Below, piece after piece: positions 4,067 to 6,375 of a DNA stretch of 22,247 nt. The translations under genes were made by a program, and so were the position numbers. Source of the stretch: Leptospiraceae bacterium (GTDB lineage: Bacteria; Spirochaetota; Leptospiria; Leptospirales; Leptospiraceae); assembly GCA_035439145.1 (NCBI GenBank), contig DAORJR010000060.1, forward strand, positions 1-22,247, read 5' to 3'. The number at the start of each line of letters is the position of its first letter. The first letter of the stretch is position 1. Under the pieces are notes generated by a model. That model worked only from the letters and a program-made list of their open reading frames with translations. It made no database searches and was not told where the DNA came from.

Positions 4067-5135
4067 CAAAAAAATTAAAGTATTTATTGTGGACGACCAA
4101 AGAGTCGTTCGAAATGTTATTCGAAAAATGATAACGACCGATCCGCGCATTGAAGTGGTAGGAGAAGCATCAAATCCTTTTGAAGCAAGCGAGCTGATTC
4201 CAGAAAAAGAGCCCGATGTTTTAACTCTAGATGTAGAAATGCCTCGCATGGATGGAGTGGAATTTTTGCGAAAGCTTATGCCTCAGTATCCAATCCCTGT
4301 GATCATGGTCAGTAGCACAACTGAGGAAGGTTCAGAGAAAGCAATATTGGCAATGCAATATGGTGCAGTTGACTTTGTCACAAAGCCAGATGGTGGAGCG
4401 ATTACTCTCGAATCAACGCAAGCAGAATTAATTCAAAAGATTAAAACAGCATCTACGATCAATATTGATAGATGGCTCAAGCAATTAAAATATAAATCCA
4501 TGCCACTCATCAATAATCCGATGGCAGGTAAAAATGGAAAGAGTAAATACAATCTTATTGCTATTGGTGCATCAACAGGTGGAGTGACAGCAATACGTCA
4601 GGTGCTATCTACAGTGCCTAGAGATTTTCCATGCATTGTGATTACTCAGCATATGCCGCCAGGATTTACTGCTACTTTTTCAAAGGGAGTTTCTAAAGAT
4701 TTCGGACTTGATGTGCGGGAAGCAAAAGATCAAGATATAATTCAGACAGGAAGAATTTACGTTGCACCAGGAGACTTTCATTTAGTGGTAAATAAAAGAA
4801 ATGGAATTAATCACACGGTTGGCTTAACTCGTGCCGAGAAAGTCAATGGACATAGACCATCTGTGGATGTTCTATTTCATTCCATTGTTGATAATAAACT
4901 TGCCAGTGAGACAATTGGCGTTATTTTGACAGGCATGGGAATGGACGGAGCAAAAGGGTTACTAGCAATGCGAGAAGCTGGATCGAGAACCATTGGCGAA
5001 AGTGAACAGTCGGCACTCATATACGGAATGCCGAAAGTTGCTTACGAAATCGGTGGTGTGGAAGAACAACTTCCTCTTTCTCAAATGGTGAATAAGATAA
5101 AGAATTATTTAAACTACTCAGGACAATATGTCTGA
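4056..5135 (+). CDS. cheB: Chemotaxis response regulator protein-glutamate methylesterase CheB
   Basis: An N-terminal receiver (VFIVDDQRVVR… DVLTLDVEMPRMDG) is followed by the CheB methylesterase catalytic motifs GASTGG, TQHMPPGFT and GMGMDG. Confidence 0.92.
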   Translation: MDNNKKIKVFIVDDQRVVRNVIRKMITTDPRIEVVGEASNPFEASELIPEKEPDVLTLDVEMPRMDGVEFLRKLMPQYPIPVIMVSSTTEEGSEKAILAMQYGAVDFVTKPDGGAITLESTQAELIQKIKTASTINIDRWLKQLKYKSMPLINNPMAGKNGKSKYNLIAIGASTGGVTAIRQVLSTVPRDFPCIVITQHMPPGFTATFSKGVSKDFGLDVREAKDQDIIQTGRIYVAPGDFHLVVNKRNGINHTVGLTRAEKVNGHRPSVDVLFHSIVDNKLASETIGVILTGMGMDGAKGLLAMREAGSRTIGESEQSALIYGMPKVAYEIGGVEEQLPLSQMVNKIKNYLNYSGQYV

Positions 5136-6375
5136 TAAAATATTACTCTATACTCAAAACAAAGAAATAACAGAGCAGGTGAAAACCTACGTTGATGATC
5201 TTACTTACGCTTTCAACGTAGCGGATAATATGGATAATCTCACAAGTTATCTCAAATCAGATGACACATGGCTACTCGTTTATGATTTTCTTGACACGAG
5301 TAGTGAAAATCAAAAAAATCTTGGAATTATTCTTTCAGAATATCCATTTCAATTGGTTATTCTATTAATCAATCGAGAGGAAGGAGACAAGTTTCTACAA
5401 ATGATGGAAAACTATCATGTGTATGATATTATCTCCTACCCAATTTATAAATTCAATTTTCATTTTGCGATAACAAAGGCGATTACCTATGGAAAGGTGA
5501 TGTCCAAGATTTCTGATTTTAAATCAAACGAGAAACAAGTTTTCGAATCCATGATTAAAGTATTTGATTGGAGAAAAGAACTTGATACTAGAAAAGTCGA
5601 ATCTCTTGCAAATGAATTAATACACCAAATCAATATTAGCTTCTTCCATGGAAGTGGTCTCGGATCACTTATTAGCACACTGAGTATTTTATTTTCAAAA
5701 GCTAAATTGGATGAAGAGAAAAAAGTTTACTTAGTTCATGAAAAAATTTATCATCTATTAAAAGACAACTACGATGAAATTCTAAAACTAAGTGATAGTT
5801 TAACTAAAACACAAGCCATATTAGCGGAAAAGGATTTTTATACAGGTAAATTAACCCTGAAAGATTTCTATGCTGCATTAACCGAAATGGTAAAAGGTAT
5901 GAAACCAGTTGCTGGAATTAAAAATCAGAAGATAGTTATGGGTGATTTTCCAAGAGACCTAGCCGGAAGATCAATTACTGCCAGCCCAGAAAATTTGAAG
6001 CTAGTCTTTGATGAATTATTAACAAATGCAATTAAATACTCGGAAGATGGAGATACAATCTATATTCTATTTTCACATGATAAAACGGATTTTGGAATCA
6101 GAATCCTGAATCCCGCCTACAAGAATTCAGACGGAACAGTGGGGATAACGGAGAGTAATGCGCATAAAATCTTTGAACCATTTTTTCGATTGACTAATGT
6201 TGTAGATGATAGATTCATGCAGGAAACATTTCGATTTGGTCTGGGTTTGACAGTTGTAAATAAAATTATTGATTTACACAAAGGGAGTATTTCGTTTTAT
6301 ACGACAGACAATAATATGAGACGAGAAAACAATATGAAAGATGTATGTGTTTGGGTTCGATTTCCAATTTTATAA
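5128..6375 (+). CDS. Atypical chemotaxis-operon protein: N-terminal receiver-like (pseudo-receiver) domain plus C-terminal histidine-kinase-type GHKL ATPase domain
   Basis: Its start overlaps the cheB stop by 8 nt. The N-terminal ~120 aa show a beta-alpha receiver-like pattern (ILLYT… WLLVYDF… LVILLINRE… YDIISYP) without the full conserved Asp/Lys set. The C-terminus has the N-box ELLTNAIKYS, the F-box FEPFFR and the G2-box GLGLTVV. No canonical HisKA H-box is present (only a weak ELIHQINISF). It is not CheR or CheD. Confidence 0.55.
   Translation: MSDKILLYTQNKEITEQVKTYVDDLTYAFNVADNMDNLTSYLKSDDTWLLVYDFLDTSSENQKNLGIILSEYPFQLVILLINREEGDKFLQMMENYHVYDIISYPIYKFNFHFAITKAITYGKVMSKISDFKSNEKQVFESMIKVFDWRKELDTRKVESLANELIHQINISFFHGSGLGSLISTLSILFSKAKLDEEKKVYLVHEKIYHLLKDNYDEILKLSDSLTKTQAILAEKDFYTGKLTLKDFYAALTEMVKGMKPVAGIKNQKIVMGDFPRDLAGRSITASPENLKLVFDELLTNAIKYSEDGDTIYILFSHDKTDFGIRILNPAYKNSDGTVGITESNAHKIFEPFFRLTNVVDDRFMQETFRFGLGLTVVNKIIDLHKGSISFYTTDNNMRRENNMKDVCVWVRFPIL

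Follow-up and report, generated by a model that had tools for sequence, protein, structure and literature searches.

A pseudo-receiver protein with a kinase-shaped ATP-binding module is conserved in a chemosensory operon of Leptospiraceae

Two described systems come closest to the locus considered here. LvrB from Leptospira interrogans (PDB:8vc9) is a histidine kinase controlled by its receiver (Rec) domain: phosphorylation of Asp56 leads to the coiled coil of the signalling helix, and the catalytic and ATP-binding (CA) domain is freed to phosphorylate His161 (PMC13269768). CheS3, encoded in the Che3 cluster of Rhodospirillum centenum, is the phosphodonor of the stand-alone receiver CheY3, and the CheS3 receiver itself is phosphorylated by CheA3 (PMC3868531). 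Here, we analyze a gene, referred to as X, in a 22,247-nucleotide stretch of DNA from a Leptospiraceae bacterium (GenBank assembly GCA_035439145.1, contig DAORJR010000060.1; below, the window is this whole stretch). X (positions 5128–6375, + strand; 415 amino acids and the stop codon, ATG start) is located between cheB and cheY and, as comparison with related genomes indicates, is a vertically conserved member of the Leptospiraceae chemosensory operon maintained by selection. According to the structural model, its product is a soluble and probably dimeric two-component protein consisting of a pseudo-receiver, a long signalling helix, a hairpin resembling the dimerization and histidine phosphotransfer (DHp) domain, and a GHKL ATP-binding domain.

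The only domain of X recognized by Pfam above the threshold is HATPase_c (amino acids 287–413, E = 1.2e-14). At E-values up to 0.1, Response_reg, HisKA, HisKA_2/3, HWE_HK, PAS, and the Che families are unmatched in Pfam, and NCBIfam yields for X partial sub-threshold matches to histidine and sensor kinases only. No Pfam or NCBIfam model of CheR, CheD, CheC/CheX/FliY, CheZ, or CheV matches X, in agreement with the original prediction, made from the sequence of this locus alone, that X is none of the usual Che proteins; a tblastn search of the window with Escherichia coli CheZ also found nothing. The profile constructed from 27 homologues matches solved receiver domains at positions 5–138 (NtrC1, E = 4e-28) and VicK-type kinases in the C-terminal half, and the profile of the C-terminal 290 residues matches canonical HisKA kinases with the hhalign probability of 99.8 (E = 3e-30).

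Two AlphaFold models of X were built, from 27 sequences, with the predicted local distance difference test score (pLDDT) of 77.5, and from 140 sequences, with pLDDT of 88.7; the layout coordinates are taken from the latter (m0cadff3b1879), and all features lie on the + strand. The pseudo-receiver (amino acids 1–107, positions 5128–5448), predicted to have the (βα)5 fold, passes into a continuous predicted helix of 66 residues (amino acids 108–173, positions 5449–5646), which comprises α5 of the receiver, the signalling helix, and the beginning of the DHp-like helix 1. The predicted break in helix 1 coincides with the family signature H/Q-G-x-G-x-G (amino acids 174–179, positions 5647–5664), a six-residue insertion relative to HisKA. 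In the model, residues 174–177 are non-helical and are followed by a helix (178–191), a short β-hairpin (193–202), the DHp-like helix 2 (amino acids 205–233, positions 5740–5826), and the GHKL/CA (HATPase_c) domain with its alpha/beta fold (amino acids 241–415, positions 5848–6372). Hence, two hallmarks are predicted for X, namely, the helical hairpin directly preceding the CA domain, as in class I kinases, and the N-terminal receiver whose connection to the DHp-CA core is an uninterrupted signalling helix, as in LvrB. The original prediction had left the presence of such a hairpin to structural modelling, which now predicts it. It had also described X as a GHKL ATPase without a canonical HisKA H-box; this holds insofar as Pfam detects no HisKA, and it has to be amended with regard to the predicted DHp-like hairpin and to His166, which hhalign places on the H-box.

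Several motifs of X depart from those of a working receiver-kinase. Four out of five catalytic residues of the receiver are lost: Thr9 and Gln10 replace the Asp–Asp pair, Ile81 replaces Thr/Ser, and Tyr104 replaces Lys, the acceptor Asp53 being the sole survivor, so that X lacks the residue set of a phosphorylatable receiver. The N-terminal domain had been proposed to be a degenerate receiver, and the match of the family profile to solved receivers, the AlphaFold fold, and these residue losses agree on that. In the hhalign alignment, the segment ANELIH166QINISF of X is placed on ADASHELRTPLT (the His of SHELRTPL), with H174-G-S-G-L-G forming the six-residue insertion, and the equivalent of the H-box histidine is His166 (LIH-QINI; codon CAC, positions 5623–5625). 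It is followed by Gln167 instead of Glu/Asp, with Asn169 at H+3 and Ile at H+4; the conserved H-box of class I kinases, H-E/D-x-x-T/N, is thus absent, and the Gly-rich insertion interrupts helix 1 two turns past His166.

The nucleotide-binding motifs are better preserved. The N, F, and G2 boxes, which had been read correctly from the sequence, are invariant or nearly so in the whole family, the motif counts here and below being taken over 148 representatives: the N box (amino acids 296–305, positions 6013–6042; Glu296, Asn300, Lys303, Tyr304) retains Glu296 and Asn300 in all 148 and Lys303 in 144, the F box FEPFFR (amino acids 349–354, positions 6172–6189) retains Pro351 and Arg354 in 147 each, and the G2 box GLGLT (amino acids 371–375, positions 6238–6252) retains Gly371 and Gly373 in all 148. 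The G1 region (amino acids 328–340, positions 6109–6147; N328-PAYKNS-D335-G-T-V-G339-I340), however, is non-canonical: Asn328 ends the strand where the adenine-binding Asp of the G1 box normally sits, and a seven-residue insertion comes next.

In the window, the + strand carries a tightly packed chemosensory operon with the gene order MCP-cheW-cheA-cheB-X-cheY, MCP standing for the methyl-accepting chemotaxis protein gene. X starts inside the last 8 nt of cheB (ATGTCTGA), and 18 nt separate its stop codon from the start of cheY; reading of the open reading frames (ORFs) and of the sequence bears out the coordinates of X, the 8-nt overlap, and the gene order of the original prediction. We surveyed 61 loci of relatives, one genome per species, of which 37 contain family members; neighbours were typed by tblastn with the Che proteins of the window and by Pfam on selected genes. 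Family members occupy che clusters of three types. Type 1, MCP-CheW-CheA-CheB-X-CheY, at times with a second CheY, is represented by the window and 17 other loci (L001–L004, L008–L013, L015–L019, L021, and L022), including those of cultured saprophytic Leptospira (L. yanagawae, L. vanthielii, L. jelokensis, L. idonii, and others). The position of X is therefore kept in 17 further genomes, with identity from 32 to 88%, which fits the view of X as a conserved cluster member; the absence of X from orthologous clusters, which would have spoken against the original prediction, is not borne out by this synteny survey. Variants of type 1 are CheA-X-CheY (L005, L006), a locus ending past X (L024), and an X-CheY fragment (L030). 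Altogether, 20 related loci have a CheY gene immediately after X, including L005 and L006, where CheB is missing, and the L030 fragment.

The protein is also under purifying selection. Compared with L001 and L002, the ratio of nonsynonymous to synonymous substitution rates (dN/dS) is about 0.05–0.06 for the entire X, 0.09–0.14 for the pseudo-receiver, 0.02–0.04 for the DHp-like part, and 0.04 for the CA domain; since dS is about 1.5, near saturation, these ratios are approximate. Judging by them, constraint is weaker in the pseudo-receiver than elsewhere in X, yet the domain is clearly maintained. The loss of four out of five receiver catalytic residues, together with the non-canonical H-box and G1 box, might be taken to mean that X is a functionless, decaying remnant of a hybrid response regulator. 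This is hardly credible and close to refuted, as the low dN/dS extends to the pseudo-receiver, neither the window nor any of the four close relatives (L001–L004) shows a disruption of the 415-codon frame, the position of the gene is kept in the 17 further genomes, and the motifs are invariant over the 148 representatives.

X belongs to a sizeable family. A word-index search retrieved about 37 proteins of about 415 amino acids, the named ones all from Leptospirales or Spirochaetia. The nearest relatives come from uncultured Leptospiraceae (P0001, 98% identical; L001–L004, 72–86%), and more distant homologues mostly carry a bona fide Response_reg domain. In an exhaustive hidden Markov model search of 1.84 billion representatives, the family comprised no fewer than 150 clusters (50% identity); the 150 family representatives are full-length matches of about 410–420 amino acids (E from 4e-157 to 6e-86). 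Leptospira genomes encode several paralogues each, and NCBI and UniRef annotate the members from cultured Leptospira as “ATP-binding response regulator,” “response regulator,” or “hybrid sensor histidine kinase/response regulator.” Our literature search found no paper on X or its family, whose signature features are undescribed there.

On sequence grounds, the best description of the family is that of a receiver fused to an ATP-binding module that is kinase-shaped but histidine-less and bears the Q-G-x-G-x-G signature. The complete catalytic set of the receiver is present in 127 out of 148 representatives. Position 166 is occupied by His in 32, otherwise by Tyr (25), Glu, Ser, Asn, Asp, or other residues, and no other His of the helical domain is conserved family-wide, these 32 at position 166 being the maximum. 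The signature positions are far more uniform: Gln (130) or His (12) at position 174, Gly175 in 138, Gly177 in 144, and Gly179 in 145. Asp never occurs at position 328, where 127 representatives have Asn and 21 have Ser, whereas Asp335 is found in 35 and is conserved only in the che-linked clade; His166 and the G1-like Asp335 covary weakly and not significantly (odds ratio 2.4, p = 0.058). X has all the defining features, namely, the receiver, the long helix, Q/H-G-x-G-x-G, helix 2, Glu296/Asn300, Asn/Ser328, FEPFFR, and GLGLT, and lies in a minority branch of the opposite pattern, with a decayed receiver and His at the H-box position. Within the type-1 clade, position 166 is His in 20 out of 25 sequences and Arg in the remaining five (L006, L021, L007, L014, L020), all with intact receivers. 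Gln167 and Asn169 are invariant in the che-linked type-1 clade, and the two che-linked Arg166 proteins, L006 and L021, retain both of them and every CA motif. The neighbour-joining tree of the DHp-CA part, which is rough and lacks support values, suggests that members with an intact receiver and His166 are basal, that the receiver may have decayed in three or more lineages (the clade of the window, that of saprophytic Leptospira, and X′, the type-2 members described below), and that His166 may have changed to Arg or Lys about three times.

Taken together, these data lead us to favour tentatively, at somewhat below an even chance, the reading that X is a histidine kinase-derived modulator of the adjacent CheY that acts independently of His, CheY~P dephosphorylation or binding being set by the nucleotide bound to the CA domain. 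X would dimerize through the DHp-like hairpin and tune the phosphorylation state of CheY through the DHp surface; a kinase-derived phosphatase or a CheY~P-binding module seems likelier than a classical autokinase, and the CA-bound nucleotide would govern its behaviour. The action is proposed to be His-independent because the che-linked Arg166 relatives keep everything else and His166 is followed by Gln167, and because Gln167 and Asn169 are invariant amides on a helix face, amide and hydroxyl residues being those used by known phosphatases. The phospho-accepting His is dispensable for the phosphatase activity of class I kinases. The residues in question in response-regulator phosphatases are Gln147 of CheZ, the E-x2-N motif of CheX/CheC, and Thr/Asn of HisKA kinases; all known receiver phosphatases place the attacking water by an amide or hydroxyl side chain.

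We infer the partner of X, the direction of its action, and its lost input from the same comparisons. The working partner would be the stand-alone receiver CheY, encoded 18 nt downstream (positions 6394–6753, + strand; Pfam Response_reg, E = 4e-24), whose catalytic residues, read from the sequence, are complete (Asp–Asp, Asp52, Thr82, Lys104); it is suggested by the CheY gene directly after X in the 20 loci and by the order HK-X″-CheY in type-3 clusters (HK, histidine kinase). Ancestral X probably received its input through a receiver phosphorylated by CheA, another kinase, or, in type 3, the upstream canonical kinase. CheA phosphorylating the ancestral receiver has a precedent in the route from CheA3 through CheS3 to CheY3 in R. 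centenum (PMC3868531). This input would have been lost in the window lineage, with the receiver surviving as a structural or regulatory pseudo-receiver, given that 127 out of 148 members are receiver-complete, and that, as the tree suggests, such members are basal and decay took place in at least three lineages.

Several observations weigh against this proposal. His166 appears to be ancestral and is mostly conserved in the type-1 clade, where the G1-like D335-G336 is kept as well. The G1 assignment itself is ambiguous, as HMMER aligns Asn328 with the G1 Asp of VicK and Asp335 with that of HK853. X has no canonical phosphatase motif (H-E/D-x-x-T/N), and its Asn169 is at H+3 rather than H+4. Adjacency of X and cheY indicates co-inheritance and probable co-transcription, not interaction. 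Finally, members of the wider family are mostly orphans with no adjacent response regulator, and thus the family-level function may be unrelated to a partner receiver.

Some of these observations bear on another explanation, that X is a second histidine kinase similar to CheS3, in which CheY acquires its phosphate from His166 after phosphorylation of the latter by the CA domain, providing a CheA-independent or CheA-modulated route, while the pseudo-receiver locks or biases the state of the kinase. The core of X is of the class I DHp-like and CA type, His166 occupies the H-box position in four fifths of the type-1 clade, where it appears to be ancestral, X retains the N, F, and G2 boxes and, in D335-G336-x-x-G339-I340, a sequence that may pass for a G1 box, and the gene order fits a kinase/regulator pair. 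Precedents are provided by CheS3, which phosphorylates CheY3 in a che cluster (PMC3868531), and by LvrB, an active Rec-DHp-CA kinase (PMC13269768). On the other hand, HisKA, HisKA_2/3, and HWE models do not match X, and Gln replaces the acidic residue beside His166. In HisKA kinases, an acidic residue next to the H-box His is needed for autophosphorylation. Moreover, Arg166 occurs in L006 and L021 with the rest kept, His is absent from 116 out of 148 representatives, position 328 is never Asp, and the Gly-rich insertion breaks helix 1 two turns past His. The evidence, namely Gln167, the Arg166 relatives, the family-wide scarcity of His, and the non-conserved G1 Asp, thus leans against a classical autokinase, and we consider a second kinase, although the main rival reading, unlikely. 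The alternative kinase input suggested in the original prediction is accordingly retained in part: the layout of receiver, signalling helix, DHp-like hairpin, and CA domain resembles LvrB, with CheS3 as a precedent, whereas the H-box and G1 box speak against autophosphorylation of the classical kind.

The adaptation arm of the pathway bears on a further explanation. It had been noted that the cluster has CheB and no CheR, and this holds within the 22-kb window, as Pfam on the scanned ORFs and tblastn with E. coli CheR revealed no CheR. The same tblastn search of the window and all the loci gave matches only in L022, L028, and an unrelated Treponematales locus; all type-1 loci of Leptospiraceae lack CheR in the cluster, and none is seen in the 1.5 kb upstream of the full-length MCP gene in L001. 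In L022, which belongs to Leptonemataceae, cheR (positions 5813–6649) is part of the cluster MCP-CheW-CheA-CheR-CheB-X-CheY. Since this locus holds both CheR and X, the absence of CheR, which these searches indicate to be real for the type-1 cluster in Leptospiraceae, is a lineage feature that is not tied to X.

X might nonetheless work in adaptation, in the manner of DivL, as a pseudokinase whose DHp surface senses CheY~P or CheA and which feeds back on the receptor/CheA array as an adaptation or gain-control arm. This would agree with the histidine-less DHp-like domain of the family, with Tyr at position 166 in 25 out of 148 representatives, as in DivL, with a cluster that has CheB and no CheR, both in the window and in every related type-1 locus except one, and with the translational coupling of X to cheB. 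However, nothing links X to the array, as it has no CheW-like, MCP-like, or P5-like domain; its strictly conserved nucleotide-binding motifs suggest an enzymatic or nucleotide-dependent role; and L022, having both genes, shows that X is no simple replacement of CheR. We therefore rate a DivL-like role as rather improbable.

Two further che cluster types contain relatives of X. Type 2, X′-CheW-MCP-CheA-CheB-CheY, is found in L025–L027, L029, and L031. In L. ilyithenensis (L025), two X′ copies are located upstream of the type-2 cluster (positions 7515–8861 and 10059–10961), and L. idonii (L031) has an extra family copy past cheY (positions 14936–15664). Type 3, in which a canonical histidine kinase is followed by X″-CheY-STAS-CheA...MCP-CheW...CheB, is found in L036, L037, and L066. 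In L037 (positions 5900–11830) and L066 (positions 3930–10160), a GAF/PAS-HisKA kinase precedes the family protein, which has an intact receiver, and CheY, a STAS protein, and CheA follow; in L066, the kinase gene and the family gene overlap by 8 nt. The location of a STAS gene beside cheA resembles the arrangement in Borrelia, in which bb0566 is taken to encode a STAS protein. The gene order of the Borrelia cluster is cheW2-bb0566-cheA1 (PMC10703414). An analogy between X and Borrelia bb0569, located between cheB2 and cheY2, was dropped, as bb0569 is an atypical MCP (PMC10703414).

The proximity to STAS genes has to be weighed in considering whether X is a GHKL Ser/Thr (partner-switching) or other non-His kinase with a STAS-type or other substrate, coupling the cluster to a sigma-factor or similar output. 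Kinase-like Ser kinases do exist (RsbW, SpoIIAB, PDK/BCK), and the X family keeps its ATP-binding motifs with no conserved His; the type-3 relatives in L037 and L066 are two genes from STAS in the order HK-X″-CheY-STAS-CheA, and the relative in L063 lies 2.6 kb from a STAS gene and adjoins a HATPase_c_2 protein. Nevertheless, HATPase_c_2 scores 15 bits on X, below the Pfam cut-off of 27.4, compared with E of about 1e-14 for HATPase_c. The top structural matches are all class I kinase cores, and among the best 50–60 matches listed in three fold searches there is, by the printed descriptions, no anti-sigma factor. No STAS, sigma, or PP2C gene is present among the scanned ORFs of the window, and none is found in the type-1 relative L008. 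The anti-sigma-like partner switching put forward in the original prediction is hence not supported at this locus, given the sub-threshold HATPase_c_2 score, the DHp-like domain, and the lack of STAS and sigma genes among the scanned window ORFs, and a kinase of this kind is very unlikely. The LvrC-like architecture, a receiver with an anti-sigma module, was likewise rejected for X, as its DHp-like domain of about 130 residues is absent from LvrC.

Outside che clusters, family members occur among other two-component genes (L033–L035, L063) or without any signalling neighbour (L065, L068–L070). Three orphans of the type-1 clade, all with intact receivers, lie next to genes of the tricarboxylic acid cycle (class I fumarase, aconitase): L014 (positions 6041–7651) and L020 (positions 2834–4603), both with Arg166, and L023 (positions 5099–7366), with His166. 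A metagenomic contig, L067, carries three family paralogues within 6 kb (positions 1611–7937), with a Band_7 gene between paralogues.

The remaining genes of the window are all on the + strand. The operon begins with the 3′ part of the MCP gene (positions 24–1676), cut by the left edge of the window (Pfam HAMP_2, E = 1e-84; MCPsignal, E = 2e-44); it encodes a tandem HAMP_2 array of four stretches, with near-identical repeats of about 90 amino acids visible in the protein. Its full-length relative in L001 (positions 1520–4621) has 1033 amino acids and consists of the 4HB_MCP sensor, HAMP, HAMP_N3, poly-HAMP_2, and MCPsignal. Then follow cheW (positions 1689–2177; Pfam CheW, E = 3e-32), cheA (positions 2186–4066; Pfam Hpt, the dimerization domain H-kinase_dim, HATPase_c, and CheW), and cheB (positions 4056–5135), encoding a receiver (Response_reg, E = 8e-26) and a methylesterase (CheB_methylest, E = 6e-58). 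A scan of positions 1–10000 for promoters and terminators gave counts equal to those in shuffled sequence. Directly 3′ of cheY, an 830-amino-acid protein (positions 6850–9342) has MVP_shoulder (E = 9e-24), Vault_3, and SPFH/Band_7 domains, the first two being of the eukaryote-type major vault protein; it is 88–93% identical in L001–L003 and hence better conserved than X. Two large hybrid sensor kinases, MASE1-PAS-HK-REC (positions 9658–12111) and multi-PAS-HK-REC (positions 16179–18563), have canonical HisKA, HATPase_c, and C-terminal receiver domains and served as internal controls for the detection of normal H-boxes of this genome by Pfam. There is no Pfam match for two ORFs of 121 and 227 amino acids (positions 15805–16170 and 18669–19352, respectively); according to the translation, the N-terminus of the former resembles a signal peptide, and a C-x-x-C-H motif in it hints at a haem c site. 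An ORF of 95 amino acids (positions 20718–21005) encodes a BrnT-family type II toxin (E = 8e-28).

Chemosensory pathways beyond the E. coli model often hold extra proteins, and X, fixed as CheB-X-CheY in at least 18 genomes, with its relatives recruited into two further che cluster types, bears on the control of phosphate flow to CheY in leptospires. More broadly, its family bears on the question of whether His-less kinase-shaped proteins are phosphatases, sensors, or other kinases. It is conceivable, though doubtful, that the Leptospirales family of about 415 amino acids forms a distinct class, a receiver-controlled histidine-less kinase-shaped ATPase, with the che-linked branches being an unrecognized accessory component of chemotaxis. 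If so, the class would be marked by the Q-G-x-G-x-G break in DHp helix 1 and by Asn/Ser replacing the adenine-binding G1 Asp, the latter of which could mean a changed nucleotide preference, and X could be, e.g., a kinase-derived phosphatase or regulator of CheY~P in the role of CheZ or CheX.

Among the known systems, LvrB is the top full-length Foldseek match of X (E from 5e-16 to 7e-17, identity 13–15%, global TM-score 0.3–0.36). Both proteins come from the same bacterial order and share the receiver, the signalling helix continuous with DHp helix 1, the DHp hairpin, and the CA domain, as well as similar spacing between the receiver Asp and the DHp His (Asp56 and His161 in LvrB, Asp53 and His166 in X). 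However, LvrB autophosphorylates, its receiver being functional and its phospho-accepting His of the HisKA type, whereas X combines a pseudo-receiver with Gln after His, a helix 1 interrupted by the Gly-rich insertion, and a G1 region without the canonical Asp. The partners differ as well: LvrB has LvrC, a Rec/anti-sigma protein, while X adjoins CheY in a che operon.

CheS3 is similar to X in being a class I kinase-type protein with N-terminal receivers, one of them lacking the acceptor Asp, encoded in a che cluster. It differs in its REC-REC-PAS-HWE_HK architecture and phosphorylatable His, X having one pseudo-receiver, no PAS, and no HWE/HisKA_2 signature. The two families are unrelated, that of X being centred on Leptospirales; X and CheS3 share only the logic, a receiver-fused kinase-like protein adjacent to CheY in a che cluster, and a defective receiver. 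DivL from Caulobacter crescentus, a pseudo-histidine kinase (PDB:4q20) with 13–15% identity to X, is membrane-anchored and multi-PAS, has no N-terminal receiver, and is encoded outside che clusters. Compared with the canonical kinases HK853, CusS, and VicK/WalK, X lacks the HisKA match, the H-E/D-x-x-T/N motif, and the conserved G1 Asp, and has the six-residue insertion in helix 1, the β-hairpin in the DHp loop, and the seven-residue insertion in the G1 loop. Proteins of the RsbW/SpoIIAB/LvrC type share with X a Bergerat-fold ATP-binding domain that lacks a phospho-accepting His, and LvrC also carries an N-terminal receiver (PMC13269768); they differ from X in belonging to the HATPase_c_2 family and in having no DHp-like domain, which in X takes up about 130 helical residues located between its receiver and CA domains. 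X thus differs in defining features from HisKA kinases, functional Rec-controlled histidine kinases, CheS3-type HWE kinases, anti-sigma kinases, and the Che accessory families, as judged by its sequence. At the same time, proteins of this general kind are already known, both as receiver-fused class I kinase-like proteins (LvrB, “hybrid response regulators”) and as a kinase of a che cluster (CheS3), and work on the X family would extend the paradigm of the receiver-controlled histidine kinase, set by LvrB, to its degenerate relatives.

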